DNA from: a bacterium
GTDB lineage: Bacteria; Arandabacterota; Arandabacteria; Arandabacterales; JALGWA01
Reading direction: 5' to 3'
Assembly: GCA_050125095.1 (NCBI GenBank)
Contig: JASFEA010000032.1
Coordinates: forward strand, 1-23,718
Length of the DNA: 23,718 nt
Shown piece by piece: positions 239 to 22,469 of this stretch. Position 1 is the stretch's first letter, and each line of letters begins with the position of its first letter. The notes beneath the pieces are model-generated. The model made no database searches and was not told the DNA's origin. It saw nothing but the letters and a program-made list of their open reading frames with translations. A program made the position numbers and the translations under genes.

Positions 239-1498
239 ATGTGGAAACGAGGGGATTTATTACGGGGCGGCCTTCTCACAGGGCTACTGGTCGCTGCTGT
301 GCTCTCGGGCTGCGCCGACCGCGACGAGTCATATTACGAGCCCGACCTGACCCCGCCGCAGGTGGGATCGCTCACGGAGGATGGCGGGCAGGTTTCCTGG
401 CAGACTGACGAGAACGCTACTTGCGTACTCACTTATGGCTCAAGAAGCGGGACATATGACCACTATGCCTATCACGTCATGGACGGGGGCCTGTCCCATT
501 ACGTGGACCTCATAGACATCGAGCCGGGCACGTATTATTTCCGGGTCATCGCCACCGACCCCGCGGGGAACGAGTCCACCGCGCCCGAGACGTCCATGGT
601 GATTGCGGAAGTCCCGGATACGGAAGACCTGCGGTACACGGCGGTCGATGTCGGCTGGGGCGACTGCCACTTTCTCGAGTTTCCCGGAGGGACCACTGTT
701 CTGGTGGACGCCGCAAATGACGGTGCCTATAGCGGAACGGACCACAGGGCGGACGTCGACGCGTTCCTCCTGGCCAGTGGGATAAAAGGGCCTTCGGGCA
801 TCGACTATATGGTCGCAACCCACGCACATCGCGACCACTACGGCGGCTTCATAAGTCTCCTGCCGCGTTTCTCCGACACCTATTTCATGTGGCCGGACGA
901 TCCCGCGGACCCCTTCCCGCTTGAGCTCACCAGTCTCATCACGGATTACGACATACCGTCGTGCACGCTCGTCACGGGCATGTCAAGCGACACCGAGGCC
1001 TTCCTCGACTGGGACCCGGCGCACGGAGTGGAGGTGACGGTATTCAGCTCGGGCGCGGGCAAATACATGACAAGCGGTCAGTCCGGCAGCACCGGCAATA
1101 ACGACTCGGTGGTTCTCAAGATAACCTACGGCGAGGTGGATATATTGCTTTGCGCGGACGCCGAGTTTTTCGTGGAGCAGAGGACGATCAAGGCCTTCGG
1201 TGCCGAAGTGTCAGCCGAGGTCTTCAAAGTCGGGCATCACGGAAACGACGACGCCACGTCGGAGGAGTGGCTACATTACCTGAAGGCGCGAGTCGGATTT
1301 ATCTCCAACTCGCTTTACGATAATGACGGCGTTTTCGACCAGAGTGTGATAAATCTCCTTCTCGACCATAAAGTCGACTACTACGTGACCGACAGGGCTT
1401 ACCGTAACGCGGGGCGGAAGGACGCCGCCGACCACGGTAATCTTACCATCACAACCGACGGTGAGACCTACACGGTTATGGCCTGGAGTTCCAGCTAG
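239..1498 (+). CDS. Lipoprotein with N-terminal FN3/Ig-like domain and ComEC/Rec2-type metallo-beta-lactamase-fold hydrolase (putative nuclease/phosphodiesterase)
   Basis: Lipobox LSGC after a hydrophobic stretch. FN3-like VSWQTD...YYFRVIATDPAGN. MBL motifs DVGWGD, THAHRDHYGG (HxHxDH), NNDSVVLKITYG, ADAE, KVGHHG. SD GGGAGG. Confidence 0.88.
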   Translation: MWKRGDLLRGGLLTGLLVAAVLSGCADRDESYYEPDLTPPQVGSLTEDGGQVSWQTDENATCVLTYGSRSGTYDHYAYHVMDGGLSHYVDLIDIEPGTYYFRVIATDPAGNESTAPETSMVIAEVPDTEDLRYTAVDVGWGDCHFLEFPGGTTVLVDAANDGAYSGTDHRADVDAFLLASGIKGPSGIDYMVATHAHRDHYGGFISLLPRFSDTYFMWPDDPADPFPLELTSLITDYDIPSCTLVTGMSSDTEAFLDWDPAHGVEVTVFSSGAGKYMTSGQSGSTGNNDSVVLKITYGEVDILLCADAEFFVEQRTIKAFGAEVSAEVFKVGHHGNDDATSEEWLHYLKARVGFISNSLYDNDGVFDQSVINLLLDHKVDYYVTDRAYRNAGRKDAADHGNLTITTDGETYTVMAWSSS

Positions 1499-1508
1499 AA
1501 GCAGATCG

Positions 1509-2510
1509 GTGGTGGATTTGCAGAAGGGCGAACGCAAGGCAGCGGCCGCATCCTGGCGAGAGAGCAAGTGGAAAAAGCTTGCGCGCGGCCTGGCCTATAT
1601 CGCCCCCGCAGGCATCATCATAATAGTATTCCGCGTGCTGCCCATAATCGCGGCGTTCGCCGTCAGTTTCTACTATGTCATGATGGGCAAGATCGTGGGC
1701 TTTGCGGGTCTTTCCCAGTACGCCATGCTCTTCCGCGACAGCGAATTCTGGAATGCGCTGCTCAATACCTCATATTTCGTAATCGGCACGGTTCCGCTGA
1801 GTCTCTTCATCTCGCTTTTCATCGCCAATCTCCTCAACCAGAAGATAAAGGGCCTGGGTGTTTACAGGACGCTTTATTTCCTCCCGGTGGTCACGTCACT
1901 GGTGGCCGTCGCGATGGTCTGGAAGTGGATCTACCACCCGCGTCTCGGGCTTCTCAATTACCTCATCAGCCTGGTGGGCATGTCGCCCAAGATGTGGCTT
2001 GAGGAGCCTCAGGGGATATTCAGCATGATGGCGGGAAGCGCGGGCCTGACGCTGCCCGTCTGGGCGGCCGGGCCGAGCCTGGCGCTGGTCGCGCTCATTA
2101 TCACCAATCTCTGGAGGGGACTGGGATACAACATCATCATCTTCCTGGCGGGCCTTCAGAACATCCCCGGGGAGTATTACGAGGCCGCCAAGATCGATGG
2201 GGCGAACAGGTGGCACATGTTCTGGAAGATAACCTGGCCGCTCATATCCCCCGTGACCTTCTATGTCGTGATCATGACAACGATCGTGTCCTTCCAGGTG
2301 TTCACGCTTGTCTACCTTATGACGGGGAGCCCGCCCGGCGGCCCGCTGGGGAAGACCAAGGTCCTGGTCTACTACATATTCGAAAAGGGATTCGAGTCGG
2401 GAGGAGACATGGGTTACGCGAGTTGCGTTGCCCTGGTGCTCTTCGGCATAGTGCTCGCGCTCACTCTCGTGCAGCGCAAGATAATAGAGAAGAGGGTCCA
2501 CTACAATTAG
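1509..2510 (+). CDS. CUT1-family ABC transporter permease (UgpA/MalF-like); start uncertain (GTG 1509/1512 or TTG 1518)
   Basis: Multiple TM helices; EAA loop LAGLQNIPGEYYEAAKIDGAN. The ORF-track start at 1461 overlaps the upstream gene, so a later start is preferred. Confidence 0.92.
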   Translation: MVDLQKGERKAAAASWRESKWKKLARGLAYIAPAGIIIIVFRVLPIIAAFAVSFYYVMMGKIVGFAGLSQYAMLFRDSEFWNALLNTSYFVIGTVPLSLFISLFIANLLNQKIKGLGVYRTLYFLPVVTSLVAVAMVWKWIYHPRLGLLNYLISLVGMSPKMWLEEPQGIFSMMAGSAGLTLPVWAAGPSLALVALIITNLWRGLGYNIIIFLAGLQNIPGEYYEAAKIDGANRWHMFWKITWPLISPVTFYVVIMTTIVSFQVFTLVYLMTGSPPGGPLGKTKVLVYYIFEKGFESGGDMGYASCVALVLFGIVLALTLVQRKIIEKRVHYN

Positions 2511-2522
2511 GAGTCGACAAGT

Positions 2523-3341
2523 TTGTACAGGCTGAGGAACATACCGGTTCACGTGCTCGTGATCATCGGGGCGGCCTCCATGATATTGCCGTTCTTCTGG
2601 ATGGTCAGCACGTCTTTCAAAACCCCGCAGGAGATATTCCTCTTCCCGCCCACGTGGGTAGCCCAGAATCCCACCGTGAGTAACTACGTGCAGGCCTGGA
2701 GCGAAGTGCCGTTTCCGAGATACTTCCTCAATACCGTCATTATCGCCGCGTGCATGGTAGCAGGCGTGATTGTAACGTCGTGCCTGGCGGCCTACGCCTT
2801 CGCCAAATTCGATTTCCCGGGGCGGGAAACCCTCTTCATTACAATGCTCTCGATGATGATCGTGCCGCAGGCGGTATACCTCGTTCCGTCATTCATAATC
2901 GTGTCGGCGCTTGGCTGGATGGACACTTACATGGCCCTGATTGTGCCCTGGCTTGCGCAGATATTCTCCATCTTCCTCCTGCGCCAGCAGTTCAGGTCCA
3001 TACCCAATGACTATTACGATGCCGCCCTCATAGACGGGTGCAGCCGCCTGGGCTTCCTGTGGAGGATACTGGTCCCGCTGTCGAAACCCACCATCGTCAC
3101 CATCGGGCTATTTGCGCTTCTGGGGTCATGGAACTCCTTCATCTGGCCCCTCATCATGACCAACAGCGACACGCTCAGGCCCATACAGGTCGGGCTTTCG
3201 TATTTCGCCCAGGAGCAGGGCACCGAGCACGGACTCATGATGGCCGCCGCGACCTTCTGCGTCGCGCCGGTCGTAATCATATACTTCTTCGCCCAGAAAC
3301 AGGTGATAGAGAGCTATGCGAAAAGCGGTATCAAGGGCTAG
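2523..3341 (+). CDS. CUT1-family ABC transporter permease (UgpE/MalG-like)
   Basis: PFFWMVSTSFK, AAYAFAKFDFPGR, EAA loop IPNDYYDAALIDG, WNSFIWPLI. TTG start with AGGAG at 2509-2513. Confidence 0.94.
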   Translation: MYRLRNIPVHVLVIIGAASMILPFFWMVSTSFKTPQEIFLFPPTWVAQNPTVSNYVQAWSEVPFPRYFLNTVIIAACMVAGVIVTSCLAAYAFAKFDFPGRETLFITMLSMMIVPQAVYLVPSFIIVSALGWMDTYMALIVPWLAQIFSIFLLRQQFRSIPNDYYDAALIDGCSRLGFLWRILVPLSKPTIVTIGLFALLGSWNSFIWPLIMTNSDTLRPIQVGLSYFAQEQGTEHGLMMAAATFCVAPVVIIYFFAQKQVIESYAKSGIKG

Positions 3342-4641
3342 CGCGGTAATCCTGGCGGCGCTCCTCATCTTAGCCGCCCTGTTGGGCGGTTGCGGCAGGA
3401 GGGCCGGAAGGGACGGCGTCGTGGAGGTCACCTTCTGGCACGGCATGGGCGGCCCGCTTGGCAGGGTCCTCAACCAGCTCATCGACGAGTTCAATGAAAC
3501 CCATGAGGGTATCTACGTGAACTCCGTCTCGATGGGCAGGTACACCGCGCTCAGCCAGAAGATCATGGCCGCTGTCGCCGCCGGCAAACCGCCGACGATG
3601 GCCCAGGCATATGAGAACTGGACCATCGAGCTCATTCTCTCCGGGAGCATCATGCCAATACAGGATTTCGTCGACGGGCCCCACGGACTCAGCCAGGAGA
3701 GCCTGGATGACATACTCCCGGTTTTCATTGAGAACAACCAGTGGGACGGCGTGATCTGGTCCTTCCCGTTTAACAAGAGCGTGAGAGCGCTTTACTATAA
3801 TAGGGACCTGTTCGCCGCCTCGGGGCTGGACCCCGACCACCCGCCCGCAGACTGGGATGAATACATCGGTTTCTCGCGGCAGATAACGCGCGATGAAGAC
3901 GGCGACGGGCATCCCGAGATCTGGGGAACTTCGGGCCAGGTGACCGTCTGGATGTTCGGGAACCTCCTCATCCAGGACGGCGGCGAGTGGCTGGACGAGA
4001 GCGGCGAGCAGGTGGCTTTCAATTCGCGGCACGGAGTTAACGCGCTCACGTTCCAGAGGGACCTGCTGGTAGGCGACGCCGGTTTCATCACGCAGGGATT
4101 CGAATACCAGAACGACTTTCTCGCGGGCAAGGTGGGAATGGTGGAGGGCTCCACGGTTTCGGTGGCTTTCATGGAAGGCAAATTCGACTTCGAGCTCGGC
4201 ATCGCCGCGCTTCCACAGGGCAAGAGGCCCGGGGGCACCATAGCGGGAACCAACGTGGTGATATTCGATGGCATACCCGAGGAAGAGCAGCTGGCCGCCT
4301 GGGAGTTCATAAAGTGGTTCACCGATACCGAGCAGACGGCCAAGTGGTCGGCCGGCACATTCTATGTGCCCGTTAGGGCGAGCGCGCTGGAGACCGATCT
4401 TCTCAAGCAGAAATTCATTGACTACCCGGGGCTCCAGGACGCCTACCGCCAGCTCGATTACGCCAGTTTCGAGCCCAAGGTGGCCGGCTGGTACGCCGGC
4501 CGGAGATATCTGGCGGAGCGGGCCATCGAATCGGTATTGAGAGGAGACGCCGACGTCCAGGGGGCGCTGGATAAGGCAGCAAAAAAGGCCGACGCCGAAA
4601 TCGCAAGACTCAAGAGACTTCAGCACAAGCTCGGGCTCTAG
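3316..4641 (+). CDS. ABC transporter substrate-binding lipoprotein, family 1 (UgpB-like)
   Basis: Lipobox LGGC; VTFWHGMGG, SFPFNKS..LYYNRDLF, AAWEFIKWF; directly follows the two permeases. Confidence 0.92.
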   Translation: MRKAVSRASAVILAALLILAALLGGCGRRAGRDGVVEVTFWHGMGGPLGRVLNQLIDEFNETHEGIYVNSVSMGRYTALSQKIMAAVAAGKPPTMAQAYENWTIELILSGSIMPIQDFVDGPHGLSQESLDDILPVFIENNQWDGVIWSFPFNKSVRALYYNRDLFAASGLDPDHPPADWDEYIGFSRQITRDEDGDGHPEIWGTSGQVTVWMFGNLLIQDGGEWLDESGEQVAFNSRHGVNALTFQRDLLVGDAGFITQGFEYQNDFLAGKVGMVEGSTVSVAFMEGKFDFELGIAALPQGKRPGGTIAGTNVVIFDGIPEEEQLAAWEFIKWFTDTEQTAKWSAGTFYVPVRASALETDLLKQKFIDYPGLQDAYRQLDYASFEPKVAGWYAGRRYLAERAIESVLRGDADVQGALDKAAKKADAEIARLKRLQHKLGL

Positions 4642-4735: not shown

Positions 4736-5800
4736 TTGAAGTCACTAGTGTCCATAATATGCTTCGCAATACTCCTCGCCCTGATTGCGGTTCCGCTGCA
4801 GTCGCCGCGCGCAGAGACCATCTGCCAGGTCCAGGACTGGGAACCTGCCACGGGATTCTCTCCGTACGAGGGCCAGACAGTTGAGGTGACGGGCTATGTG
4901 ACGGTCGGGCCCGGAATCTTCCAGGAGATGTATACATCAATCTACGTGGTGGGCGTTGGTGCCGATGACTGCGGCATAAACGTGTTCAGTTTCGAACCCG
5001 CCACTGGTCTCGAACTCGGGGATAAGATAAGGGTCACCGGTCTCGTTGAGGAGTATGTCTCCACTTCCGGATACGGGGCGGTAACCGAGCTCACGTTCAC
5101 CGATCCTTCGGCGCTGGTGATAGTTGAGAAGGGCGACGGCACTTCCCCGCCGCCGGTACATATGTCGACGGGCGGCGTCAGCCACGAGTCCAATGAGGGC
5201 AAGCTCGTGACGGTCACAGCAGTCGTTGTGAGCGCGTTTGTGGGCAGGGATTTCATGATCGACGACGGGACGGGCGCAATCGAGGTGTTCGACCGGGGTG
5301 AGAACTTCTACACATCGGATCCCGTCTGGCTGAGCCTCTCGTACGGGGATGAGGTCGTGATCACCGGCATAGTGTCCCAGTCCGACCCCGACATGCCATA
5401 TCTCAGCGAATACAGCATAATGCCCCGCAGCCCGGAGCCACCGTATAACGATGTGGTGAAGAAAGAGTGCATTCCGGGCGGTTCCTCGGGGGCCGAGCTC
5501 AAGGTATCGAGCGGGATCTTCGCCCCGAGCATTGGCGAGACCGTGACCATAGAGTACAACTGCCCGCACGGGGGCAGGATGCAGCTCCGGATTTTCGACG
5601 GCAGTGGCAGGCTGTCCGCGACGCTGTTTGACGGCCTCTCCGTCTGCGGCGAGCGGACCATGGTGTGGGACGGCCGGAACGAGGTCTGGGAGGCATTGCC
5701 CGTCGGGCTCTACCTCATAACGCTTACATGCGAAGACCCCGAGACCGGGAACGAGAGCATGGAAACCGTGCCCATCGTCATTGGGAGGGAGCTCAGGTGA
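4736..5800 (+). CDS. Secreted protein: paired OB-fold module + FlgD-Ig/T9SS-like C-terminal domain
   Basis: Signal peptide. ICQVQ...SPYEGQTVEVTGYVT, GDKIRVTGLVEEY..TEL, EGKLVTV, IDDGTGAI resemble YhcR/ExeM-type OB folds. CTD LRIFDGSGRL...WDGRN...GLYLI. Confidence 0.75.
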   Translation: MKSLVSIICFAILLALIAVPLQSPRAETICQVQDWEPATGFSPYEGQTVEVTGYVTVGPGIFQEMYTSIYVVGVGADDCGINVFSFEPATGLELGDKIRVTGLVEEYVSTSGYGAVTELTFTDPSALVIVEKGDGTSPPPVHMSTGGVSHESNEGKLVTVTAVVVSAFVGRDFMIDDGTGAIEVFDRGENFYTSDPVWLSLSYGDEVVITGIVSQSDPDMPYLSEYSIMPRSPEPPYNDVVKKECIPGGSSGAELKVSSGIFAPSIGETVTIEYNCPHGGRMQLRIFDGSGRLSATLFDGLSVCGERTMVWDGRNEVWEALPVGLYLITLTCEDPETGNESMETVPIVIGRELR

Positions 5801-8721
5801 AGCGGAGCCATATCATAGTCGCCCTCTGCTTCTGCCTGGTTGCGGCTGCGGCGCAGGTGTACGGCGATACCATTGCCGAGGTCAAGGAGATCAACGCGAG
5901 TGGCCTTCCCGTGAAGTTGGGGCAGATAGTGGACGTCTCCGGAACCGTCACTGTCGCCAACGGTACCTTCAACGACCGCGACCTCGACATACATATTCAG
6001 GACGAAACGGGCGGGATTTATGTCTCTCTGAGAAACGGCGTCTACATTGATGCCCGCCTGGGCGACAGCGTGGTGGTGACAGGCCTGGTAGACCAGGAGG
6101 GCAGGACGCCCAGAAGGAACCACACCAAGCTGTCGCTGCTCTCCGCCGATGGCATACAGGTTGTAGGAGAAGCGGCTTTCCCGGTCCCGATCGTGGTGAC
6201 GGCGGCCGAGCTGGCACAGCCGGCCCAGCCTCCTCTCGAGCAGTACGAAGGCCGGCTCGTCAGAGTCGAGGGCCTGAGCATAAACCCGGAGGATTGGCCC
6301 ACGGCGCCCGGGGGCGACAAGTGGATCACGGCCACCGACGCCACGGGTTCGCTTCAGATAAGGCTTGATAAGGACACCGACATACCGGGCAGCGAGGCTC
6401 CGAGCGATCCCTTTATAATCATCGGCGTGATCATACAGGATTCGAGCAATCCCCTCACCGGCTATCATGTCTGGCCGCGCTCCAGATACGCGGATTTCCT
6501 CGACATGGGAAACGGGTCGGGCCTGGCGTCCGTAGACCCCGATGTGGTCGAAACGGACGTGGAGGAATTCGACCTCGATGTGACCCTCAAGGGCAACGGC
6601 GTCGACACCATAACGGCGTTCGAGATCGGCCTTCCGCTCGATGACGGCTGGGGCTGGGAGCTGTACCAGGACAACCTGTCACTCTCCGGGCCGGGACTTG
6701 AAGGTGTGACTTGGGTCGAGATCACTGACTCGGGCGTCATCGTGCGAGGGGCCGAGATACTCGATGAAGCTTCATACGGCACGGTGACCTTCGAGGGCAT
6801 GACTCCCCCTGCGCGCGTTGTCAACTCGACGGTCGAGATCTCGACGTCGGTGGACGGCGAAACATTCGATACCATTTCAAGCAATCCCGTTATTGGGTCG
6901 CTGCTCCCGCTCGCGGACGTAGTGGTGAATGAGGTCTACCCCGACGACGGGACGACCTCGTCGAGCAGCGCTTTCATAGAGCTTAAGAACCGGAGCGGCT
7001 GGACTGCGCATCTGGAAGGTTTCACATTGAGCGATCTTAAGACCGCCGCGCATTGCAGTCCTGTGGCCCGGCTCACCTTCGGGGCTTCGGACAGCATATC
7101 GCCAGGCGGTTATCTCGTAATCGCCGAATCGGAGGCGGGCTTTGAGGAGAGGTTCGGCTCGCCGCCGGACATAGGTGCCGGGATCAGCCCTCTGGGCCGG
7201 GTCGGCGGCGACGGAGCCAGTGTGGCCGGGGTGGACGCATATGAGGTCGTGGCGCTCTGGCGCGGCGCGGTCTCCGGCCAGATGGTCGACCACTGCGAAT
7301 ACAAATCGCCGCTCATCGTGCTTAAGGACATATGCATCGGCGTCGGGGGTGACAACGACGCGTTCCCGATCGTGCCGCCGGTCGGCTACTCCCTGGCGAG
7401 GGATGAAGAAGCGGATGACGTGGGAGCGTCGGACATTGACTTCATCATGAGCTCCGAGCCCACACCGGGCGAGGAGAACGTGCCTGAAGACAGCGCTCCC
7501 CCCGAGATCGAGGAAGTCGTCATGTTCTCTCTGGACGTTGTCGAGGTGCGATTCAACGAGCCCTGTGACAGCGTGGCGCTGGCGGATCCGTCGGCCTATT
7601 ACATGAACGGCGAGGAGCCAGTGGCGGTGTATGTCGCCCTGACGCTGCAGAAGGTGGCGCTCCTCTTTGAAGGTTTCGAGTCGGGCATACCAGCGACTTT
7701 GACCGTCACCGAGATGGTGGATATCGCAGGCAATACAGCGGAAAATCTCATGTTTGAGTTCACCACATCCGGGAGTCCGGCCACGCGCATCTGCCAGGTG
7801 CAGGAGTTTGACGAGAAGGGCTTCTCTCCCATGCGGGGCGATATAGTCTCGGTGATCGGCTTTATCACCGTGCCTCAGGGCGTGTTCCAGTCTCAGTACA
7901 ATTCCATATATATCCAGGGCCTGGACGGCTGCGGCGTGAACGTTTTCTCCTACGACCCGCCGTCCCCCAACCCCGGTGCCGGCTACCTGGTGAAAGTGAC
8001 CGGAGAGGTCGAGGAGTACGTGTCGGGCACGGCCGGGGCGACAACGGAGCTCTACATGGGATCGCCGAACGCGGAGGTTCTGCTGTCGGGATTCTATCCT
8101 GTGCCGGACGCGGTCGTCATGAAGACGGGTGAGATCGGCCATGAGTCCAATGAGGGCAAGCTGATTGCCACGGAGGGCGCCATTGTCAGCGCCAATGACT
8201 TCGGTTTCTACGTGAACGATGGCTCGGGGGGAATTCAGGTTTACCAGAACTACACAGATATTGACTACTCGCAATTCCGCGTCGGCATGTACGTGAAGGT
8301 CCAGGGGGTTATCCTTCAGTACGACCGCACGATACCCTTCCTGGACGGCTACGAGCTCGTGCCGCGCCGGGACAGCGACATCATAGTCGTCGAAGAAGCC
8401 TACCCCGGGGAAGCCTTGCTCGATGTCGAGCCGCGGGTCTTCTGCCCTTCATGCGGGGAATATGGATTCACAGTCAGATTCTCCGCGCCGCAGGCGGCCC
8501 AGGTGACCCTAAGGATATTCGACGGCAAGGGCCGGCTCGTAAAGACGCTTTTCAGCGGGCTCAGCGTCGGCGAAGGCGAGAAGGTTTGGGACGGGCTCCA
8601 GCCCGGCGGCGAGCCCGTGGAACCCGGTCTCTATATTTGCTTCCTGGACTCGGTGGAGGAGGGGACCGGCAGAAGGACAACCGACAGCGCGCCTATAGTA
8701 GTGGGTGTTCAGCTTAAATAG
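5797..8721 (+). CDS. Large secreted modular protein: OB-fold pair, Ig-like, lamin-tail domain, Ig-like, OB-fold pair, FlgD-Ig/T9SS-like CTD
   Basis: GTG at 5797 overlaps the upstream stop (GTGA), has a GGGAGG SD and begins a signal peptide (MKRSHIIVALCFCLVAAAAQVYG). LTD motifs VVVNEVYPD..FIELKN..GYLVIA..PTPGEEN. CTD LRIFDGKGRLVKTL..WDG..PGLY. Confidence 0.78.
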   Translation: MKRSHIIVALCFCLVAAAAQVYGDTIAEVKEINASGLPVKLGQIVDVSGTVTVANGTFNDRDLDIHIQDETGGIYVSLRNGVYIDARLGDSVVVTGLVDQEGRTPRRNHTKLSLLSADGIQVVGEAAFPVPIVVTAAELAQPAQPPLEQYEGRLVRVEGLSINPEDWPTAPGGDKWITATDATGSLQIRLDKDTDIPGSEAPSDPFIIIGVIIQDSSNPLTGYHVWPRSRYADFLDMGNGSGLASVDPDVVETDVEEFDLDVTLKGNGVDTITAFEIGLPLDDGWGWELYQDNLSLSGPGLEGVTWVEITDSGVIVRGAEILDEASYGTVTFEGMTPPARVVNSTVEISTSVDGETFDTISSNPVIGSLLPLADVVVNEVYPDDGTTSSSSAFIELKNRSGWTAHLEGFTLSDLKTAAHCSPVARLTFGASDSISPGGYLVIAESEAGFEERFGSPPDIGAGISPLGRVGGDGASVAGVDAYEVVALWRGAVSGQMVDHCEYKSPLIVLKDICIGVGGDNDAFPIVPPVGYSLARDEEADDVGASDIDFIMSSEPTPGEENVPEDSAPPEIEEVVMFSLDVVEVRFNEPCDSVALADPSAYYMNGEEPVAVYVALTLQKVALLFEGFESGIPATLTVTEMVDIAGNTAENLMFEFTTSGSPATRICQVQEFDEKGFSPMRGDIVSVIGFITVPQGVFQSQYNSIYIQGLDGCGVNVFSYDPPSPNPGAGYLVKVTGEVEEYVSGTAGATTELYMGSPNAEVLLSGFYPVPDAVVMKTGEIGHESNEGKLIATEGAIVSANDFGFYVNDGSGGIQVYQNYTDIDYSQFRVGMYVKVQGVILQYDRTIPFLDGYELVPRRDSDIIVVEEAYPGEALLDVEPRVFCPSCGEYGFTVRFSAPQAAQVTLRIFDGKGRLVKTLFSGLSVGEGEKVWDGLQPGGEPVEPGLYICFLDSVEEGTGRRTTDSAPIVVGVQLK

Positions 8722-9612: not shown

Positions 9613-9613
9613 T

Positions 9614-13399: not shown

Positions 13400-13423
13400 A
13401 AGAACATGATGGGGGTGGGTGAA

Positions 13424-15112: not shown

Positions 15113-15198
15113 GCGGTACTGCCTGACGGATTCCTCTTAATTGCCTGCACCTCACCGGCGGGTATATGCCCTGTCGTAGCCTTCATCTTTATTTTTAG

Positions 15199-15227: not shown

Positions 15228-15444
15228 TGATTTTGCAGGGAGGGGGCATGCGTTGCGATTCCAGGTATCTGTTGGTCTTGAAACCTGCTTATCGAACACC
15301 TGGCTGTTTTGGTATCAGGATGTGAGCGACTCGGTTTCATAACCCCGATTCCGGGCGAGCAAGGGGGTGATAATGGCAAGAGATTGTGCAGTTGGGGAGT
15401 AATTCCTTTTGGGTAGCAGTAACGCAGAAGGAGGGAAGGGAACG

Positions 15445-16152
15445 ATGAAGAAGTTGATATTGCTTGCCGTCGTGATCTTCGCGGCTTCGACGGCTTTTGC
15501 GGATGATACCATTTATGACATTCAGAATGGTACCATTCCTTCGGGAACCTATGTGAATGTCGAGGGTGTCGTTGTCACCGCCGGCCCTTACGAGTACACT
15601 TCGACCGGCGCATATTGCTTCGTTGAAGAGCCAGGCGGCGGCGCCTACAGCGGTGTGGAGGTATACTGGGGCAGCGCCCTGGCCGGCACTTACGGCGGGC
15701 TGGTAAGAGGCGATGTGGTCAACGTTTCGGGAACCACCGGCGAGTACTTCGACATGACCGAGATCGACATGAGCGCTCCCGGCGACACGCTGATCGTAGT
15801 CGGCACGGCGCCCGTTCCGGGTCCCGATCTAGTCAATGCCGATGAAATGATGAGCGAGCCGTGGGAAGCGGTTCTTTGCGTGACCAACTGCTGCGTATGT
15901 ACCGTAGCGCCCAATGACTACGGTGAGTGGTTTGTCGAGGACGCGTTCGGCACCGCCAAGTGCGACGACAAGGGTCTCAATCTGACATACGTGGCCGCCT
16001 ACGGCGACTGGAGGATCATCACGGGCGTCGTCTGGTATTCCTATGGCGAGTTCAATATCTCCCCCCGGGACGACGGCGATGTCTTTGATCCAGGCGGCCC
16101 GACGGCTGTCGAGCCCACTACCTGGGGTGGCATCAAGGGTCTATACAGGTAA
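15445..16152 (+). CDS. Small secreted paired OB-fold protein with C-terminal AVEPTTWGGIKGLYR tail
   Basis: ATG 15445 with GGAGG/GAAGGG SD; signal peptide MKKLILLAVVIFAASTAFA. TIYDIQ..VNVEGVVVTA..GDVVNVSGTTGEYFDMTEI..YGEW..PRDDGD resembles the OB modules of the 16382 gene. Confidence 0.78.
   Translation: MKKLILLAVVIFAASTAFADDTIYDIQNGTIPSGTYVNVEGVVVTAGPYEYTSTGAYCFVEEPGGGAYSGVEVYWGSALAGTYGGLVRGDVVNVSGTTGEYFDMTEIDMSAPGDTLIVVGTAPVPGPDLVNADEMMSEPWEAVLCVTNCCVCTVAPNDYGEWFVEDAFGTAKCDDKGLNLTYVAAYGDWRIITGVVWYSYGEFNISPRDDGDVFDPGGPTAVEPTTWGGIKGLYR
16103..16152 (+). repeat. Copy 1 of a 50-bp repeat encoding the AVEPTTWGGIKGLYR-stop tail (copy 2 at 19945-19994)
   Basis: 44/50 nt identical to 19945-19994; the six differences are all synonymous. 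Confidence 0.9.
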
Positions 16153-16172
16153 CTCAATTTTTACTTGATTTT

Positions 16173-16210: not shown

Positions 16211-16289
16211 CGCCCCGGTTTTGTCGAAAATGACCACTTTTAAGGCACTTTGCTACGCAATTCCGGCATCCCGGAAGTCCTGAATTATA

Positions 16290-16318
16290 TTGAAATCAGC
16301 GGGGTCGTGTGATATACT
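16290..16318 (+). promoter_or_regulatory. Strong sigma70-like extended -10 promoter for the 16382 gene
   Basis: TTGAAA (16290-16295), 17 nt ending TGTGA, TATACT (16313-16318). Confidence 0.75.
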
Positions 16319-16381
16319 TAAGACGTTGGAGAGTCCCCGTATTATAGAGGGGTTATTATTCCCTCGAGAGGAGGAGTGGTT

Positions 16382-19267
16382 ATGTATTGGCGTAGTATCA
16401 CCAGTTTTGTTATTCCAATTGCGGCTATCCTTCTGGCGTCACTTGCTTTTGCCGCCAGCCCAGGTGACGTGGTAATCAATGAGCTTTACATGAATACGTC
16501 CGACTTTTTTGACGGGTCGGAGTACTTCGAGCTATATAACACGACGGGTTCGGCCATAGACATATCGGGTTGGGTGCTGACCAGCGTCGAGTACGATGAA
16601 ATCTGCAGAGAACATCTTCAGAAGTTCCCCGCCGGAACGACCATAGCGGCGAACGGCTATATCATCATCGTCAGGGACGTGACGAATGCAGACAGCGCCG
16701 GCTTCTCGAACTCCGGGAGATTCGAGTTCCTGCCCGACTTCGAGATGTATGACGACAGCCAGAGCTATGAAAACGACGACCCCAGAGTCGACAACATGAT
16801 CTGTCACAATCCCGACTCGTTTGATGACCAGATCAGGCTCTATCCGGGCACCAGCGACTACGCCTACAGGTGCACCGGGGCCGGAAGATACGAGGTGATG
16901 TACCTCTATGCCGACACATCGCTGACCACCCTTATAGATGCGGTGGAGTACAACGACAACGACTGCGTGGTGGACATGTGCCCGGTCAACGGCGTGAGCG
17001 ATGCGTTCCCCACCTATCCTAGTGTGGGATTCAGTCTGGGCCGGGATGCGAGCAGCTCGGACACGGATGACTCCGGCGCCGATCTCTCAATTCAGATTCC
17101 CACTCCGGGCGCGCAGAACATCGACAATATACCTCCTGATATATATACCTTGAGGTACAACCCCTGCCAGCCCGCGACCTCTGATTCCGTCACGATCTCC
17201 TGCTACATCATCGATACTCACGGCATACAGTGGGCCAGGTGCTATTACGCTGTCGCCACCGACCCGCCGGACTTCACTTACGGCGCATGGGACAGCACCA
17301 CGATGACTGATGTCGACATGGATTCTGTCTTCACCTGCAAGCTCCCCCCCCAGGCGGTAGACCCGAGTTACCTCCAGTTCTACGTGAGGGCTTCGGACAA
17401 TCTCGGCGCGGTGAGCGTATATCCCGAGGACGCCCCGGCTGAGCCCTATAACTACTCTGTAGGGACGACGCTGATATCGGACATTCAGACCGTCGATATA
17501 GGCGCGGACAGTTCCTACTATATGTTCCAGGCAGTCAACGTGACAGGTATCGTCACCGCGGAGAGGGGCTTATACAACAACAACACGTTCGTCATACAGG
17601 ACGGCTCCGGACAGTGGTCGGGCATCTTCGTCTATGACGGACCGGGGACGACTACGGTAGCCCGCGGCGACAGCGTAACGCTGTCGGGTTGGGTATCGGA
17701 GTACTTCGCGCGCACCGAGATAAACCTCTTCTCCGGCTGCGTCGTCAATCACGGTCCCGGCTGGTTTCCCGACCCCACTCCGGTGACCACCACCACGGTC
17801 TCGACCTCTTCGCTTCTCGCAGAACGCTACGAGGGCGTGTATATAGGGACCGAGGACGTGACGGTCACCAATGACAGCCTCGGCTACGGCGAGTGGGAGA
17901 TAAACGACGGGTCGGGTCCCTGCCGGGTGGACGATTACGCGTATTACGTCTATACGCCCGAGAACGGCGATTTCCTAGAGGAAGTCCGGGGCATTCTGGA
18001 CTTTTCTTACAGCGACTTCAAGATCCTGCCACGCGGAGACGAGGACATAATCGGTCCGCCGGCGGTAAGCGACGTGCGTTACACGCCTCACGCTCCGACG
18101 GCCTCCGACCAGATTACCGTGTCGGCGACCGTCAAGTGCGCCAACCCCATCGCCTCGGTCAAGACCTATTTCAGCCTCAATGACGGCGCGTCCTGGGACA
18201 GCACTTCGATGAGCACTTCGGACAGCGTGTATACGGGCACGATTGGACCGCTGCCGAATGACTCCAGCGTCGAATACTACGTTAAGGCCTGGAGCAATAC
18301 CGGCGCGACGGGCAGGCGTCCCGCGGCAGGCAGTTACTCCTTCTATGTCGGCAGGGTAAGCATCTTTGACATCCAGTTCCCTGCCGGAGGCGACTCCTCG
18401 GCATATGCAGGTAAGCCTGTCAACACAGAGGGTATTGTGACCGCGGGGCTCGGGACCTACAGCGATGCCTTCTTCTTCATTCAGGAAGACTTCGGGGGCG
18501 GTTCAGCCGAATACCGTGGTGTTAAGGTCTACGTCGGCAGCGGCAACCCGCTCACCGTCATCAGGGGCCAGAGAGTGACGGTGTCGGGCGATGTGTGGGA
18601 GTATTTCGGCGAAACCGAGATAGCGATGCCGTTCGACGAGGCCATAACCATCCACCCGGACGGTTCTGCGCGCGCGCCTTCATACAATGTGCCCGCGGGT
18701 TCAGTGAACACCTCCGAGCAGTGGGAAGGTGTGCTCGTTGAGGTGGGCAAGGCCACAGTCACGAATCCGGATAACGGTTTCGGCGAGTGGACGATATACA
18801 CCGGCGGTGCTGCTGATGACACTTGCATTGTTGGTGACATAGTAAGCTACTCCTATGTGCCGACGCTGGGTGACTCGGTCTTCGTGACGGGCATATCGAT
18901 GTACGCCTATGGCGAGTATACGCTGCAGCCGAGGGACGACGAGGATATATGCGGCGCGACAGCCGGCGTGCCCGGGGATGACGTGAGGCCGGTCCGGCTG
19001 GCGATGTCCATATTCCCCAATCCCGTGATGTCGGCCGGCGAGATAAGACTGGCAATTCCTTCGAATGACCGCATTTCGGTCAAGATATACGATGTAAAGG
19101 GCAAATACGTGGAGACCCTCATGGACAAGGAAGTTCAGGCCGGACAGCACCAGGTAACCTGGGAAGGACGCAACAGTGACGGAAGGCGCGTCACGTCCGG
19201 CATTTACTTCGTTCGAGTCGAAACGACAAGAGGATCTCTTACAAAGAAAATGGTTCTCTCGAGGTAG
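16382..19267 (+). CDS. Large secreted modular protein: lamin-tail domain, 2x (Ig-like + paired OB-fold), FlgD-Ig/T9SS type A-like CTD
   Basis: ATG 16382 with GAGGAG SD; signal peptide. LTD GDVVINELYMN..SEYFELYNTTGSAIDISGWVL. Two ISDIQ/IFDIQ..VNxxGIVTA..GDSV..EYFxxTEI..EGV..GEW..PRxxxDI modules. CTD IFPNP..IYDVKG..WEGRN..SGIYF..KKMVL. Confidence 0.85.
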   Translation: MYWRSITSFVIPIAAILLASLAFAASPGDVVINELYMNTSDFFDGSEYFELYNTTGSAIDISGWVLTSVEYDEICREHLQKFPAGTTIAANGYIIIVRDVTNADSAGFSNSGRFEFLPDFEMYDDSQSYENDDPRVDNMICHNPDSFDDQIRLYPGTSDYAYRCTGAGRYEVMYLYADTSLTTLIDAVEYNDNDCVVDMCPVNGVSDAFPTYPSVGFSLGRDASSSDTDDSGADLSIQIPTPGAQNIDNIPPDIYTLRYNPCQPATSDSVTISCYIIDTHGIQWARCYYAVATDPPDFTYGAWDSTTMTDVDMDSVFTCKLPPQAVDPSYLQFYVRASDNLGAVSVYPEDAPAEPYNYSVGTTLISDIQTVDIGADSSYYMFQAVNVTGIVTAERGLYNNNTFVIQDGSGQWSGIFVYDGPGTTTVARGDSVTLSGWVSEYFARTEINLFSGCVVNHGPGWFPDPTPVTTTTVSTSSLLAERYEGVYIGTEDVTVTNDSLGYGEWEINDGSGPCRVDDYAYYVYTPENGDFLEEVRGILDFSYSDFKILPRGDEDIIGPPAVSDVRYTPHAPTASDQITVSATVKCANPIASVKTYFSLNDGASWDSTSMSTSDSVYTGTIGPLPNDSSVEYYVKAWSNTGATGRRPAAGSYSFYVGRVSIFDIQFPAGGDSSAYAGKPVNTEGIVTAGLGTYSDAFFFIQEDFGGGSAEYRGVKVYVGSGNPLTVIRGQRVTVSGDVWEYFGETEIAMPFDEAITIHPDGSARAPSYNVPAGSVNTSEQWEGVLVEVGKATVTNPDNGFGEWTIYTGGAADDTCIVGDIVSYSYVPTLGDSVFVTGISMYAYGEYTLQPRDDEDICGATAGVPGDDVRPVRLAMSIFPNPVMSAGEIRLAIPSNDRISVKIYDVKGKYVETLMDKEVQAGQHQVTWEGRNSDGRRVTSGIYFVRVETTRGSLTKKMVLSR

Positions 19268-19373
19268 AGAACCGCGTAAGGAGGTGGTGTACTGGGAAAC
19301 GTGAGCTGAGGGGAGTATCAACCTGAGGTGTGACAGAAAGCCGGGTCTGCGCACCAAACAACGGAGGGAAACG

Positions 19374-19994
19374 ATGAGGACTTTGTTAATCGCTTCACTG
19401 GCAGTACTGATTGCGGTGCCGGCATTTGCCGCCACCTGCATTTACGACTGGGAAGACTGCGGGACCGTGTTGGGCATCTATCCCGACATGAACGGGATGA
19501 TCGTCACAAATGTGACCGCGCCCGATCCCATTTACGAGGGCTTCAGGTCGCTCAAGATCGAGGACAACCTCGCGAGCGGCACGCCTCAGGCGTATGTGGC
19601 CTGGATTTATGGCCTTGCCGACGGTGACAGCGTGTGGGCCGAGTTCGCCCGCTACGACGTTACTCCCGCCGCGGCTCCTTCATGCCGCATCTGGGGTCAC
19701 TGGAACGACACCGACAGCCTGACCGGCTACAGCGGCAGCGCCAGCGGTAACTACGATTACGGTCCGGGCCTTGGCTGGGACATCGCAGGCTTCGGCTGGC
19801 TGGTGGTTGACGGCCATACGGGCCTCGTAGTCGAGTGCCGCACCTATTCGAATCCGGGCGACGTAGTCTGGATAGACTATCTCCAGGTCAGCTTCTATGC
19901 CGATCATCCCGGCGTTTGCGTCATGGTTCCGAGCGCCGGCCCTTCGGCTGTCGAGCCCACCACCTGGGGCGGCATCAAGGGGCTGTACCGGTAG
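19374..19994 (+). CDS. Small secreted protein, possible CBM4/9-like beta-sandwich, with C-terminal AVEPTTWGGIKGLYR tail
   Basis: GGAGG SD; signal peptide MRTLLIASLAVLIAVPAFA. YEGFRSLKI...VWIDYLQV pattern reminiscent of galactose-binding-like folds (weak call). Tail identical to the 15445 protein. Confidence 0.65.
   Translation: MRTLLIASLAVLIAVPAFAATCIYDWEDCGTVLGIYPDMNGMIVTNVTAPDPIYEGFRSLKIEDNLASGTPQAYVAWIYGLADGDSVWAEFARYDVTPAAAPSCRIWGHWNDTDSLTGYSGSASGNYDYGPGLGWDIAGFGWLVVDGHTGLVVECRTYSNPGDVVWIDYLQVSFYADHPGVCVMVPSAGPSAVEPTTWGGIKGLYR
19945..19994 (+). repeat. Copy 2 of the 50-bp tail-encoding repeat
   Basis: Matches 16103-16152 at 44/50 positions. Confidence 0.9.
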
Positions 19995-20031
19995 CATACG
20001 GTGACATAGGGAAGTGAAATAGCAGTAAAAC

Positions 20032-20068
20032 GGGCGCGCCGGCCCGGCTGGCGCGCCTTCCTCTATTG
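20032..20068 (+). terminator. Probable intrinsic terminator after the 19374 gene
   Basis: 11-bp stem GGCGCGCCGGC (20033-20043) / GCTGGCGCGCC (20047-20057) with one G-U pair, followed by TTCCTCTATT. Confidence 0.7.
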
Positions 20069-20256
20069 AGGCCGGGACCCGGCGTGAGATCGAGGTGCTC
20101 TCTCGCCCGGGTGGCGCCGGCTCAAGTAAAGACAAATGTCCCATTTCCCGCCGGACACGGGGCCTTTTCCCGCGCCCGCTAATGCACAACCAATGGCTTA
20201 TGTTCTTCCCCGGGAGAGCAGTTCATATCGCTTCCCGATTCTCTACAAGATTGCAG

Positions 20257-20554: not shown

Positions 20555-20583
20555 TTGCCGTAACACGGCGTTTGTGGTATAAT
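20555..20583 (+). promoter_or_regulatory. sigma70-like extended -10 promoter for the 20610 gene
   Basis: TTGCCG (20555-20560), 17 nt ending TGTGG, consensus TATAAT (20578-20583). Confidence 0.75.
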
Positions 20584-20609
20584 TGAGGAGGAGCGAAGGG
20601 GGAAGAACA

Positions 20610-22469
20610 ATGAAGCTCGGCCGTCCAAATGCGAGATACTTTGCTTTTTCCGTTTTAATTGCGTTGCTTGTGACCTTCATGGCCGCCCGGGTTTTCGCCG
20701 AACTCACGATTCACGTGATCGACGTGGGCCAGGCGGACGCATGCCTTATCATATCGCCCACGGGCGGCACCATGCTCATCGACGCCGGCGATAACGGCGA
20801 CGGAAGCTCCATAGTGGTGCCGTACCTGCAGACCTACGGCCTCCAGGCGCTAGACTATATCGTCGCTACTCATTATCACTCCGACCATATCGGCGGGATC
20901 GACGAAGTCGTCTCCTATCTCGGCATCGATTCGGTGAGGGTGGCGGTGTACGACAGGGGCTGGTCTTATAACACTCAGACTTACTCCGATTACGCTGCCG
21001 CCGTGGCTGCCAAGAGGGCCACCATAACCGACGGCCAGGTCACCGACCTCGGCGGGGGAGTTACGCTCACATGCGTCGCCGTGAACGGGAACGGCGTTCT
21101 CTCGCCCCCCTTTGACACTCAGTACAATGAAAACGATCTCAGCGTCTCGCTGGTTCTGGAATATGACAACGGTTTCAGGTTCTTCACGGGCGGTGACCTG
21201 TCGGGCAGGACCGACGGAGAGTACCACGACATCGAAACATCAGTCGCACCCGAAGTGGGCGCCGTGGACGTATACAGGGTCAATCACCACGGCAGCTTCA
21301 CAAGCTCCAATGCCACGTTCGTTTCAACCCTGCTGCCCGCGGTCTCGGTCATATCTCTTGGTGACGGGAACCCTTACGGCTATGTCCACCAGGAGGTCAT
21401 GGACAGACTGATCGCCTACGGAAGCAACGTCTACCAGACCGAAGCCGGCGTGGGAGCCACGATTCCGCCGGGCAGGGGCAGGGTAGTAAACGGGGACATA
21501 GTCGTGGAAGTCGATTCGACCTTCTATACGGTGGACGTCACCGACTTCTATGAGCTCGGCGACACCGGCATTCCCATCAGCGCCGTCAGGGAAAACGACG
21601 AATACGGCCAGCCCATGTTGCTTGCCGAACCCGTCATCCTTAGGGGCGTGGCCACCGTTCCGACAGGCACGTTTTCCACCCTGCACAACGATATATATAT
21701 CCAGGACGGCACGGGCGGCGTGAACGTCTACCTGCGCAACTCAACCAGCCCGACGGTCGCCCTGGGGGATAGCCTCAAGGTCAGCGGCCTGGTTGACCAG
21801 TACAGGGGTCTTACCAGAATCACGAGCCCCACCATCACGGTTGAGGATACGGGCCTTCCGGTTCCGGAGCCCGTCGTGCTAACCACCGCGTTCGTGGACT
21901 CCGGCGGTGAGGACTACGAGGGCTCACTTGTCAAGGTCGTCGGTGCCGCGATCACGGGCGGCACCTGGCCCGGAGAGGGCGCAGACGGAAGCGTCACCGT
22001 CGACGACGGCTCGGGCGAATGCACGATATACATAAGCAGGTACACCGATATCGACGGCACCCCGCAGCCGGCCGGCTACCTCGACATCGTCGGCGTTCTC
22101 ACGCAGTACGACGCTTCATCTCCTTATTTCTCGGGCTACAGGATACAGCCGCGCTTCACCGCCGACATAGACTCGACCACCTCGGGGGTGCCCGGCGCCG
22201 ACGTGGAGAGGGATGCCAACCTGATCGCCAGAGTGCTTCCCAATCCCGCGAGGGGCAGCCTGAGAATAACCTTCGGCGCGGGCTCGGTCGCCGCCGACAG
22301 GCAGGTTGCTTTCTACGATCTCAGAGGCCGCAAGGTGGCAGGCGGGGAGGCCCTGGCCGGCGAGCGTTTCTTCGACTGGAACGCCGAGGGCCTGGCGAGC
22401 GGGATCTACTTCGCCGTAGTCACGAGCGGGGCCGAGCGTGCCACAGCAAAGATCGTACTGATAGACTGA
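20610..22469 (+). CDS. Secreted ComEC/Rec2-type MBL-fold hydrolase fused to a paired OB-fold module and T9SS type A-like CTD (putative extracellular nuclease)
   Basis: ATG 20610 after a purine-rich SD; signal peptide. IDVGQADA, LIDAG, THYHSDHIGG, NENDLSV, TGGDL, NHHGS. OB module IYIQDGTGG..GDSLKVSG..YEGSLVKV..DDGSG..QPR. CTD LPNP..YDLRGRKV..LASGIYF..KIVLI. Confidence 0.88.
   Translation: MKLGRPNARYFAFSVLIALLVTFMAARVFAELTIHVIDVGQADACLIISPTGGTMLIDAGDNGDGSSIVVPYLQTYGLQALDYIVATHYHSDHIGGIDEVVSYLGIDSVRVAVYDRGWSYNTQTYSDYAAAVAAKRATITDGQVTDLGGGVTLTCVAVNGNGVLSPPFDTQYNENDLSVSLVLEYDNGFRFFTGGDLSGRTDGEYHDIETSVAPEVGAVDVYRVNHHGSFTSSNATFVSTLLPAVSVISLGDGNPYGYVHQEVMDRLIAYGSNVYQTEAGVGATIPPGRGRVVNGDIVVEVDSTFYTVDVTDFYELGDTGIPISAVRENDEYGQPMLLAEPVILRGVATVPTGTFSTLHNDIYIQDGTGGVNVYLRNSTSPTVALGDSLKVSGLVDQYRGLTRITSPTITVEDTGLPVPEPVVLTTAFVDSGGEDYEGSLVKVVGAAITGGTWPGEGADGSVTVDDGSGECTIYISRYTDIDGTPQPAGYLDIVGVLTQYDASSPYFSGYRIQPRFTADIDSTTSGVPGADVERDANLIARVLPNPARGSLRITFGAGSVAADRQVAFYDLRGRKVAGGEALAGERFFDWNAEGLASGIYFAVVTSGAERATAKIVLID

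Follow-up and report, generated by a model that had tools for sequence, protein, structure and literature searches.

Sediments and soils contain large amounts of phosphorus, nitrogen and carbon in the form of extracellular DNA and RNA, and to our knowledge the Bacteroides ddb system reported in 2025 is the only gene-level model of a dedicated uptake locus in diderm bacteria. Here we describe a locus of 14 genes on a single contig of an uncultured, Eisenbacteria-like bacterium from sediment (G000:C32, analyzed whole and called the window; 23,718 bases), which we read from its predicted proteins, with a confidence somewhat better than even, as an envelope-spanning pathway for scavenging extracellular nucleic acid (genes g01–g15 of the window are listed in Table 1). 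The closest published system is ddbABCDEF, the DNA-utilization locus of Bacteroides thetaiotaomicron (Sharan et al. 2025, PMC12478041), which shares with it the logic of a polysaccharide utilization locus and an OB module of the DUF5689 type; the membrane parts and the enzymes differ. In the passages of that paper drawn on here, ddb combines surface and periplasmic DNA-cutting enzymes with a non-catalytic DUF5689 surface protein adjoining the outer-membrane transporter, all products being exported, a combination that our locus resembles in its predicted products; the DUF5689 model matched g14 with 31.5 bits (above the cut-off of 28.6) and g06 with 27.2 bits (just below it). The transporter DdbC is described there as a TonB-dependent barrel, whereas its counterpart here is an unannotated putative barrel fused to ComEA-type domains, and TonB_dep_Rec, Plug and CarboxypepD_reg had no match in any of the 15 window proteins. 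In the same description ddb uses other nucleases and lipoprotein export, whereas this locus has metallo-beta-lactamase (MBL) hydrolases of the ComEC type and C-terminal domains (CTDs) of a type IX secretion system (T9SS), and it includes, unlike ddb as described there, a 5'-nucleotidase and an ATP-binding cassette (ABC) importer. The original prediction had known of no described locus of this kind, a statement now to be qualified: ddb is an analogue, with a TonB-dependent transporter and other nucleases. Full-text literature searches found no published description of the barrel fusion or of the locus itself.

Other described systems resemble parts of the locus. In Riemerella anatipestifer, from the Fibrobacteres–Chlorobi–Bacteroidetes (FCB) group, RA0C_RS04920 (DUF5689), RS04915 (an outer-membrane barrel) and RS02645 (helix-hairpin-helix, HhH) form a like combination acting on extracellular DNA, a likeness of combination and not of barrel homology; as far as that paper is cited here, these are three separate proteins, only RS04920 and RS04915 share an operon, and all serve transformation (PMC8459023). 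In our locus, by contrast, the HhH domains are fused to the barrel, and catabolic and import genes are included. The HHH_3 domains of g08 and the MBL hydrolases, nearest to the C-terminal domains of ComEC, recall ComEA and ComEC; unlike in those proteins, the HhH domains are carried by a putative outer-membrane protein without GIG hairpins, and the MBL domains are free-standing exported enzymes. The N-terminal OB and lamin-tail accessory architecture of the ExeM/NucH/Xds-type nucleases (NF033681, NF033680) recurs in g12, whereas the endonuclease/exonuclease/phosphatase (EEP) catalytic domain of these enzymes is absent from the locus proteins and no full-length member was found in the genome. 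As in UgpBAEC and the U3G-binding protein, the importer belongs to CUT1 and its binding protein to a phosphate-ester-binding clade; unlike UgpBAEC, it reaches none of the Ugp equivalog cut-offs, the clamp has its second Trp replaced, and neither an ATPase nor UgpQ is encoded in the locus. A gene for CTD cargo followed by a small barrel gene (50 of 53 loci; see below) is also known from systems with T9SS type B CTDs and PorP/SprF-like barrels, in the parts of those reports used here (PMC12618676, PMC9143113), unlike which the CTD is FlgD_ig/type-A-like here and the barrel PorV/PorQ-like.

The 14 genes are open reading frames (ORFs) of the plus strand between 239 and 22469, and all their products are exported or membrane proteins. 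Lipoboxes were seen in g01 (LSGC) and g04 (LGGC) and membrane segments in the permeases g02 and g03; the remaining products have type I signal peptides. This agrees with the original prediction of 14 co-oriented genes for such proteins over this span, and Pfam and NCBIfam searches of the window proteins recovered each domain named in it, the barrel part of g08 apart. Genes g01–g10 overlap or are separated by at most 94 nt, and the gaps after g10 measure 296, 223, 106 and 588 nt. The ORF of g06 is open from 5665; its likely start is a GTG at 5797 rather than 5665, since the signal peptide begins there, at VKRSHIIVALCF, and a gene starting at this GTG overlaps the stop of g05 by 4 nt. A scan for promoters and terminators was uninformative: promoter-like sites numbered 17 (8.6 expected) and terminator-like sites 11 (13.9 expected).

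Table 1. Genes of the window, with predicted products
Gene	Position	Strand	Product and remarks
g01	239..1498	+	Lipoprotein, N-terminal Ig/FN3-like domain and ComEC-type MBL hydrolase; candidate envelope nuclease; overlaps first permease gene
g02	1461..2510	+	CUT1 ABC permease, UgpA/MalF-like; start codon uncertain
g03	2523..3341	+	CUT1 ABC permease, UgpE/MalG-like
g04	3316..4641	+	Lipoprotein substrate-binding protein, phosphoester-binding CUT1 clade
g05	4736..5800	+	Exported twin-OB module and FlgD_ig-type C-terminal domain; type I (SPI) signal peptide
g06	5797..8721	+	Twin-OB (DUF5689-like), lamin-tail domain, second twin-OB, FlgD_ig-type CTD
g07	8734..9612	+	Small outer-membrane barrel, PorV/PorQ-like; candidate dock for the CTD protein of the gene immediately upstream
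g08	9614..12076	+	820 aa; signal peptide, two ComEA-type HhH domains (~28-95, ~133-200), ~620-aa unannotated putative outer-membrane barrel
g09	12092..13399	+	FadL/PorV/BamG-like outer-membrane barrel
g10	13406..15112	+	Exported 5'-nucleotidase (UshA/YfkN-type), without CTD
g11	15409..16152	+	Small secreted twin-OB protein; end ...TWGGIKGLYR; same genus only
g12	16376..19267	+	Lamin-tail domain, two ExeM/NucH-N-terminal-type twin-OB modules, T9SS type A CTD; without nuclease domain
g13	19374..19994	+	Small secreted protein, no known family; end ...TWGGIKGLYR
g14	20583..22469	+	ComEC-type MBL hydrolase, DUF5689/twin-OB module, T9SS type A CTD; candidate surface nuclease; variable locus part
g15	22563-23717	-	Phosphodiest family, 5' end open; outside locus

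Analysis of g08 revealed two stretches matching HHH_3 (66.5 bits, cut-off 27), and scores below the cut-offs for TIGR00426 (35.6 bits against 53.1) and TIGR01259 (43.6 bits against 152). Its only relatives in the PDB were ComEA and EEPD1, matched over the N-terminal ~200 residues only, and its first HhH domain (HhH1) shares 38% identity over 63 residues with the ComEA of the same genome; the second (HhH2) is basic in 8 of 11 family members. Residues 200-820 had no Pfam family at E<=1 in any of the 11 members, and they contain about two dozen amphipathic beta-type segments and end in ...YIW, so that residues ~200-820 form a putative outer-membrane barrel. The predicted HhH-barrel fusion thus stands for its HhH domains, recognized by HHH_3, and its barrel, without a Pfam family, has been seen only indirectly. 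The N-terminal domains would face the periplasm, given the usual topology of outer-membrane barrels alone. A protein atlas returned 'ComEA family' and DUF6029, both at 0.93, as leads only. A profile search of 1.84 billion representatives at 50% identity gave 155 clusters at E<=1e-30; the 24,130 matches at E<=0.001 are not a family count, because the HhH domains of the profile also match ComEA-type proteins, and multi-HhH proteins already stood low among the 150 matches listed.

The order of g01–g10 was kept in all eight genomes of the same order that were fetched, as far as their contigs extend. Orthologues of g01 lie at the same place in seven of them, the contig of the eighth ending first; g12 comes next in 7 of the 8 and g13 after g12 in 6. 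The remaining genes are more variable: an orthologue of g11 was found only in G002, of the same genus, and a match to g14 only in G011, with the OB-CTD part alone. Of the 40 related genomes searched, 15 belong to the family and order of the host, and all 15 have a full-length relative of g08; relatives were also present in three distant genomes (G021, G028 and G033), where the core is also kept.

When one genome was scanned for each of 185,579 species, 178 relatives of g08 were found, from which 74 loci were kept; neighbors were tallied with hidden Markov models built from the locus proteins, counting only loci with a flank of sufficient length. A recurrent core emerged across these 74 loci in several FCB-type candidate phyla, consisting of a CTD surface protein, a PorV-like barrel, the HhH-barrel, a FadL/BamG-like barrel and a 5'-nucleotidase. 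In 54 of 66 loci the gene immediately upstream of the HhH-barrel gene is PorV-like; an OB/LTD/CTD protein (LTD, lamin-tail domain) is encoded upstream in 47 of 53, and downstream follow the FadL/BamG-like gene, directly, in 41 of 61 and the 5'-nucleotidase in 40 of 50. Among the 31 loci with full flanks, an MBL gene was near the core in 11 and a permease together with a binding protein in 9; the ABC importer was joined to the core in two Eisenbacteria clades, in one Zixibacteria locus (L092) and in G021. The loci are labeled Eisenbacteria, Zixibacteria, KSB1, Calditrichota, Krumholzibacteriota, Cloacimonadota, Fibrobacteraceae, Ignavibacteria and UBP14, and a few Alphaproteobacteria, a label that we do not trust; names of database proteins add Marinimicrobia/Fidelibacterota to the spread of the g08 type, and the barrel tree follows phyla. 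The arrangement is more than chance, since its synteny is conserved, and the co-occurrence of the genes in other genomes, on the absence of which the original prediction was to fall, was found both within the order and across these loci.

Loci lacking the 5'-nucleotidase belong mostly to one KSB1-like clade (14 rows, approximate likelihood-ratio test 99), in which the core lies beside ksgA and recO. The loci L058, L060, L063-L068, L072-L074, L081 and L085 contain only the OB-CTD protein, PorV-like barrel and HhH-barrel, followed by ksgA, recO and a class II tRNA synthetase gene; such core-only loci may represent an uptake-only version or a mere chance housekeeping neighborhood. Four Cloacimonadota loci contain the HhH-barrel, the FadL-like barrel and the 5'-nucleotidase and lack the cargo protein. 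Just past the end of one further locus lies a reverse-transcriptase (RVT_1) fragment (L031:20107-20757).

In the importer, the permeases matched BPD_transp_1 (g02, 53 bits; g03, 64 bits) with UgpA (124 bits) and UgpE (122 bits) as their respective top NCBIfam matches, both below cut-off, and the binding protein g04 matched SBP_bac_8 (141 bits, Pfam) and, far below its cut-off of 411 bits, UgpB (NF008211, 129 bits). The best PDB relatives of g04 were 7c14 and 7c0f (174-176 bits, E 1e-50, residues 37-434, ~38% identity), the latter being the dinucleotide (U3G)-binding protein of Thermus thermophilus; lower scores were obtained for UgpB of E. coli (110 bits) and M. tuberculosis (85-91 bits) and for sugar binders (<75 bits). 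In SI Table S5 of PMC12718374, 7C0F is entered as 'U3G Binding Protein' with the ligand uridylyl-3'-5'-phosphoguanosine, and the sections of that paper used here place the U3G binder, the glycerophosphocholine binder and UgpB in one phosphate-binding CUT1 branch, with two Tyr and two Ser in common and a two-Trp clamp arising only in UgpB. When the g04 family was aligned with E. coli UgpB, to which and not to published residue numbers these columns were matched, the Tyr and Ser columns were invariant and the first Trp was kept, and the second Trp was replaced in all six members aligned. By these sequence comparisons g04 appears to be a member of the phosphoester-binding UgpB/U3G clade of CUT1 and not of a sugar-binding clade, a point in favor of the original prediction. 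Since the best solved relative of g04 is a dinucleotide binder, the importer probably takes phosphodiester fragments, and for the same reason import probably runs beside the 5'-nucleotidase and not after it, which makes the predicted sequence of dephosphorylation followed by import doubtful.

Orthologues of g04 with at least 67% identity were found in 14 of 15 same-order genomes, the one miss being a genome 57% complete, and two genomes of the same class without the barrel had g04 matches of only 27-28%. In 9 of 9 genomes of another lineage, G039 included, a DHH/DHHA1 (NrnA-like) gene comes immediately after the gene for a binding protein of the same clade. Compared with the G039 protein, which shares 38% identity with g04, these binding proteins show 55-87% identity. 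This linkage is a supporting hint only, because the G039 protein is as close in score to UgpB as to the U3G binder. The genes concerned (L124:6183-10284 and L126-L134) form operons of two permeases and a UgpB/U3G-clade binding protein with the DHH/DHHA1 gene directly behind, for which import and degradation of oligonucleotides or of adenosine 3',5'-bisphosphate (pAp) is possible. No ATPase gene was found in the locus; elsewhere the genome encodes one MalK-type ATPase and two other CUT1 permease sets, together with DeoC, a nucleoside phosphorylase and several small DHHA1 proteins. For the 5'-nucleotidase g10 the Pfam cut-offs were exceeded both for 5_nucleotid_C (119.3 bits) and for Metallophos (44.5 bits), and all NCBIfam equivalog models fell below cut-off.

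The two MBL enzymes are of the ComEC type, as predicted, with intact motifs and with C-terminal domains of ComEC as their best solved relatives (top PDB matches 9ic4, 30bt and 9vc6). For g01 (Lactamase_B 38 bits; motifs HAHRDH and HHG), TIGR00361 ComEC_Rec2 was matched with 70 bits over model positions 443-660, and the best PDB relatives were the ComEC MBL domains 9ic4 and 30bt; g14 (Lactamase_B 49 bits, Por_Secre_tail 34 bits; motifs HYHSDH and HHG) scored 60-70 bits to ComEC. Both match only the MBL part of TIGR00361 (428-660), and the competence channel domains PF03772 and DUF4131 were found in neither; a full-length ComEC is encoded on contig C248. In the reports cited here, as far as they were drawn on, the MBL domain of ComEC has Mn-dependent nuclease and phosphodiesterase activity (PMC8579336) and acts as an endonuclease and 5'-3' exonuclease, more strongly so with an OB fold in cis (PMC12455585). 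In g14 a single chain combines an MBL domain with an OB module. No full matches to ExeM-type, Endonuclease_NS or SNase nucleases were found in the genome (91% complete), and because no classical secreted nuclease was found, the two ComEC-type enzymes g01 and g14 are left as candidate cutters. A further MBL domain, 60% identical to that of g14, is encoded at G000:C265:762-1625.

Seven twin-OB modules of ~200 aa, with 27-41% identity to the first, are distributed over g05 (28-234), g06 (69-278 and 707-907), g11 (34-225), g12 (two) and g14; PF01336 was matched by 4 of the 7 and DUF5689, at E<=0.01, by 2. Besides these, g05 showed weak PF01336 and FlgD_ig matches, and g06, encoded two genes upstream of g08, matched the lamin-tail domain (36 bits), PF01336 (35 bits) and FlgD_ig (29 bits). 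In g12 the lamin-tail domain (50 bits) and Por_Secre_tail (37 bits) were found, and NF033681 was matched with 75 bits over model positions 1-116 only; no EEP catalytic domain follows the OB and lamin-tail domains in any locus protein, the matches to NF033681 covering 1-117 with at most 75 bits against a cut-off of 300. No Pfam family was matched by g11, and g13 had neither a Pfam nor an NCBIfam match, a CBM_4_9-like assignment from the protein atlas (0.92) being a lead only. PDB sequence searches with g06 and g12 returned nothing for the OB region. A second twin-OB/CTD protein is encoded at G000:C71:3735-5579, with a PorV-like gene ~7 kb away on the same contig, and a paralogue of g13 (54% identity) at G000:C26:6286-6867.

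The type A CTD model TIGR04183 (cut-off 23) was exceeded by g12 (38.3 bits) and g14 (27.7 bits); g05 and g06 contain only a related FlgD_ig-type domain ending in PIVVGxxLK. T9SS-type display of the locus proteins is plausible, in line with the original prediction, because the genome has PorU (542 bits, cut-off 420) with an adjoining PorV-like gene and SprA (501 bits summed, above cut-off); dozens of CTD matches occur in the genome. The products of g11 and g13 share a terminal peptide (16108-16152 and 19950-19994), ...EPTTWGGIKGLYR, and a pattern search found 44 ORFs of at least 80 aa in the genome ending in [ST]WGx[IVLM]Kxx[YFW][RKQ]; this tail resembles a further, third kind of C-terminal sorting tag in addition to the CTDs of two types in the locus.

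The small barrels g07 and g09 scored 48.9 and 34.6 bits to NF033709 PorV_fam, below the cut-off of 90, and g09 also scored 64 bits to NF053685 BamG (cut-off 250). Family profiles matched PorV 6h3i_F for g07 (E 1.5e-6) and, for g09, the outer-membrane chain 9hiv_F (E 4.7e-7), CymD and the FadL-like 3dwo; the two families are homologous (hhalign 97.7%). In 50 of 53 loci the gene immediately upstream of the PorV-like one encodes a CTD-ending protein, and the five loci without a PorV-like gene have no such CTD protein on the same strand. In Flavobacterium, according to the part of PMC12618676 used here, cargo genes are often followed by genes for specialized shuttle barrels, and by analogy with these gene pairs g07 may hold g06.

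Most of the stretch was present in four DNA runs (wetland, sediment, seawater). One wetland RNA library contained 20 contigs, 17 with at least 99% likeness, on 10911-13578 and 14913-20238, covering parts of g08/g09 and g11–g13 and including exact matches. Depth was 13-29 on g11 and 12-20 on g13, and the deepest contigs (13-29x) lie at 15260-16137 and 18956-20025. This uneven cover suggests RNA rather than carried-over DNA.

Several observations weigh against nucleic-acid scavenging. Acidity is strong in the OB modules (isoelectric point (pI) ~4.1, net charge -17 to -26), within an exoproteome that is acidic overall (median pI 5.0 over 595 signal-peptide-like ORFs); among ORFs of at least 200 aa in the genome, exported ones have a median pI of 5.0 versus 5.9 for the rest, and 23% lie below pI 4.5. 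The GIG signature is lost in 4 of 4 HhH hairpins of g08, whereas the genome's own ComEA keeps it, and HhH1 is acidic in 11 of 11 family members. Binding of DNA by the OB and HhH parts, which the original prediction had assumed, is no more than presumed, and the charge of the former and the lost hairpins of the latter speak against it. No EEP, SNase or Endonuclease_NS domain, and thus no classical nuclease, occurs in the locus proteins, and outside the Eisenbacteria-type loci few nuclease genes lie beside the core: apart from the MBL genes in 11 of the 31 full-flank loci, the other loci checked for classical nucleases had mostly housekeeping neighbors and a single EEP enzyme. The ComEC-type MBL family includes phosphorylcholine esterase, and g14 scored 45-49 bits to CbpE/Pce. 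The U3G-binding protein of Chandravanshi et al. (2021) is said to bind glycerophosphocholine as well, its physiological ligand not being settled, and the G039 binding protein is, as noted, equally close to UgpB. None of the RNA-library contigs lies on g01–g07, a gap that proves nothing, and DNA carried over into that library may account for contigs that in any case cannot prove transcription.

Some of these points would suit the scavenging of non-nucleic organophosphates such as glycerophosphodiesters, head groups of teichoic acids or phospholipids, or nucleotide sugars, with the MBL enzymes as phosphodiesterases, the 5'-nucleotidase/UshA acting on nucleotide sugars, UgpB-like import, and OB and lamin-tail proteins as general adhesins. 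The best NCBIfam names of g02–g04 are UgpA, UgpE and UgpB, g14 also resembles the phosphorylcholine esterase CbpE, UshA-type enzymes hydrolyze UDP-sugars by their family name, and the acidic OB modules argue against binding of a polyanion. We nevertheless regard this explanation as improbable, since all Ugp matches are far below the equivalog cut-offs, the Trp clamp of UgpB is incomplete and the U3G binder is the closer relative, no UgpQ/GDPD gene was found in the locus by Pfam search, and both MBL enzymes score higher to ComEC than to CbpE; moreover, HhH, OB (PF01336, DUF5689 and ExeM N-terminal type) and lamin-tail domains are all modules of nucleic-acid enzymes or receptors.

Slightly less probable again is the outer-membrane step of natural transformation, in which uptake of DNA, to be imported through ComEC and recombined, would be the task of the CTD receptor, the PorV-like barrel and the HhH-barrel, the enzymes being secondary. 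The genome has a full-length ComEC and a ComEA, the KSB1-like clade keeps the three-gene core without catabolic genes beside ksgA and recO, and in Riemerella the DUF5689 protein, its TonB-type outer-membrane barrel and the HhH protein are reported as essential for transformation in the part of PMC8459023 relied on here. In L059 a ComEC gene lies 4.4 kb downstream of the core, a linkage that we judged too distant, with housekeeping genes in between. Against transformation stands the 5'-nucleotidase, in the operon here and in most of the loci elsewhere; ComEC, DprA and ComF genes are not linked to the locus within the window, and recO beside the core is perhaps a plain housekeeping neighbor. The locus described here further includes an importer of the phosphoester clade and two hydrolases, which fit breakdown of DNA rather than its preservation.

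Least probable is a surface or outer-membrane structural module without uptake, in which the barrels would only anchor T9SS cargo adhesins for extracellular DNA or other polymers of the biofilm matrix, the HhH domains would bind protein and the neighboring enzymes would be unrelated: the PorV/BamG-like character of g07 and g09, the role of PorV-type and PorP-type barrels as cargo shuttles or anchors in Bacteroidota (PMC12618676, PMC9143113, in the parts cited) and the degenerate HhH hairpins are in its favor, but the tight and widespread linkage of the 5'-nucleotidase, with hydrolases and an importer here, is hard to explain by anchoring alone, and the four Cloacimonadota loci keep two barrels and the 5'-nucleotidase without any cargo protein.

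Downstream of the locus, g15 was considered as its nucleotide phosphodiesterase and rejected, since it has no counterpart beside the locus in other genomes; it also belongs with a cluster of sulfate-activation and Phosphodiest genes on contig C4. The first 126 bases of this contig (G000:C4:1-9216) repeat the end of the window, and g15 runs on there, joining a sulfate symporter, ATP sulfurylase, APS kinase and three more Phosphodiest/sulfatase-like paralogues in a separate, sulfation-related neighborhood.

In the scavenging pathway that we favor, the T9SS cargo proteins g05, g06 and g12, with their twin-OB and lamin-tail domains, would bind DNA or RNA on the cell surface, one CTD type being held by the PorV-like barrel g07. 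The MBL-OB enzyme g14 would nick or trim the polymer there, other enzymes taking its place where g14 is absent, and strands or fragments would cross the outer membrane through the large g08 barrel, whose ComEA-type domains, foremost the basic second one, would hold the incoming polymer in the periplasm as ComEA does; the FadL/BamG-like barrel g09 would be a partner in the same outer-membrane complex. In the periplasm the lipoprotein MBL enzyme g01 would degrade the polymer to short fragments and the 5'-nucleotidase g10 would free phosphate and nucleosides from mononucleotides, while the g02–g04 importer, powered by the single MalK-type ATPase of the genome encoded elsewhere, would import dinucleotides or short phosphodiester fragments for cytoplasmic breakdown by DHH/DHHA1 proteins, nucleoside phosphorylase and DeoC.

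A more far-reaching claim joins these parts: that the g08 family is a TonB-independent outer-membrane translocon for DNA or RNA with a ComEA-like periplasmic ratchet, complexed with PorV/FadL-like barrels that hold OB-fold receptors delivered by T9SS, and that it supplies, in Eisenbacteria, the first ABC importer devoted to di- or oligonucleotides. We put this forward tentatively, as a possibility that falls well short of even. If true, it would amount to a complete nucleic-acid utilization pathway whose membrane parts are unrelated to those of Bacteroides ddb or of uptake by type IV pilus and PilQ. The locus provides clonable targets, namely the binding protein, the two exported ComEC-type candidate nucleases and the unannotated barrel family, as well as marker genes for DNA foragers in metagenomes. 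The results suggest that short phosphodiester fragments, and not nucleosides alone, are perhaps imported across the inner membrane, counter to the usual assumption that dephosphorylation comes first, and that many uncultured FCB-type phyla may use a different outer-membrane device for the same job.

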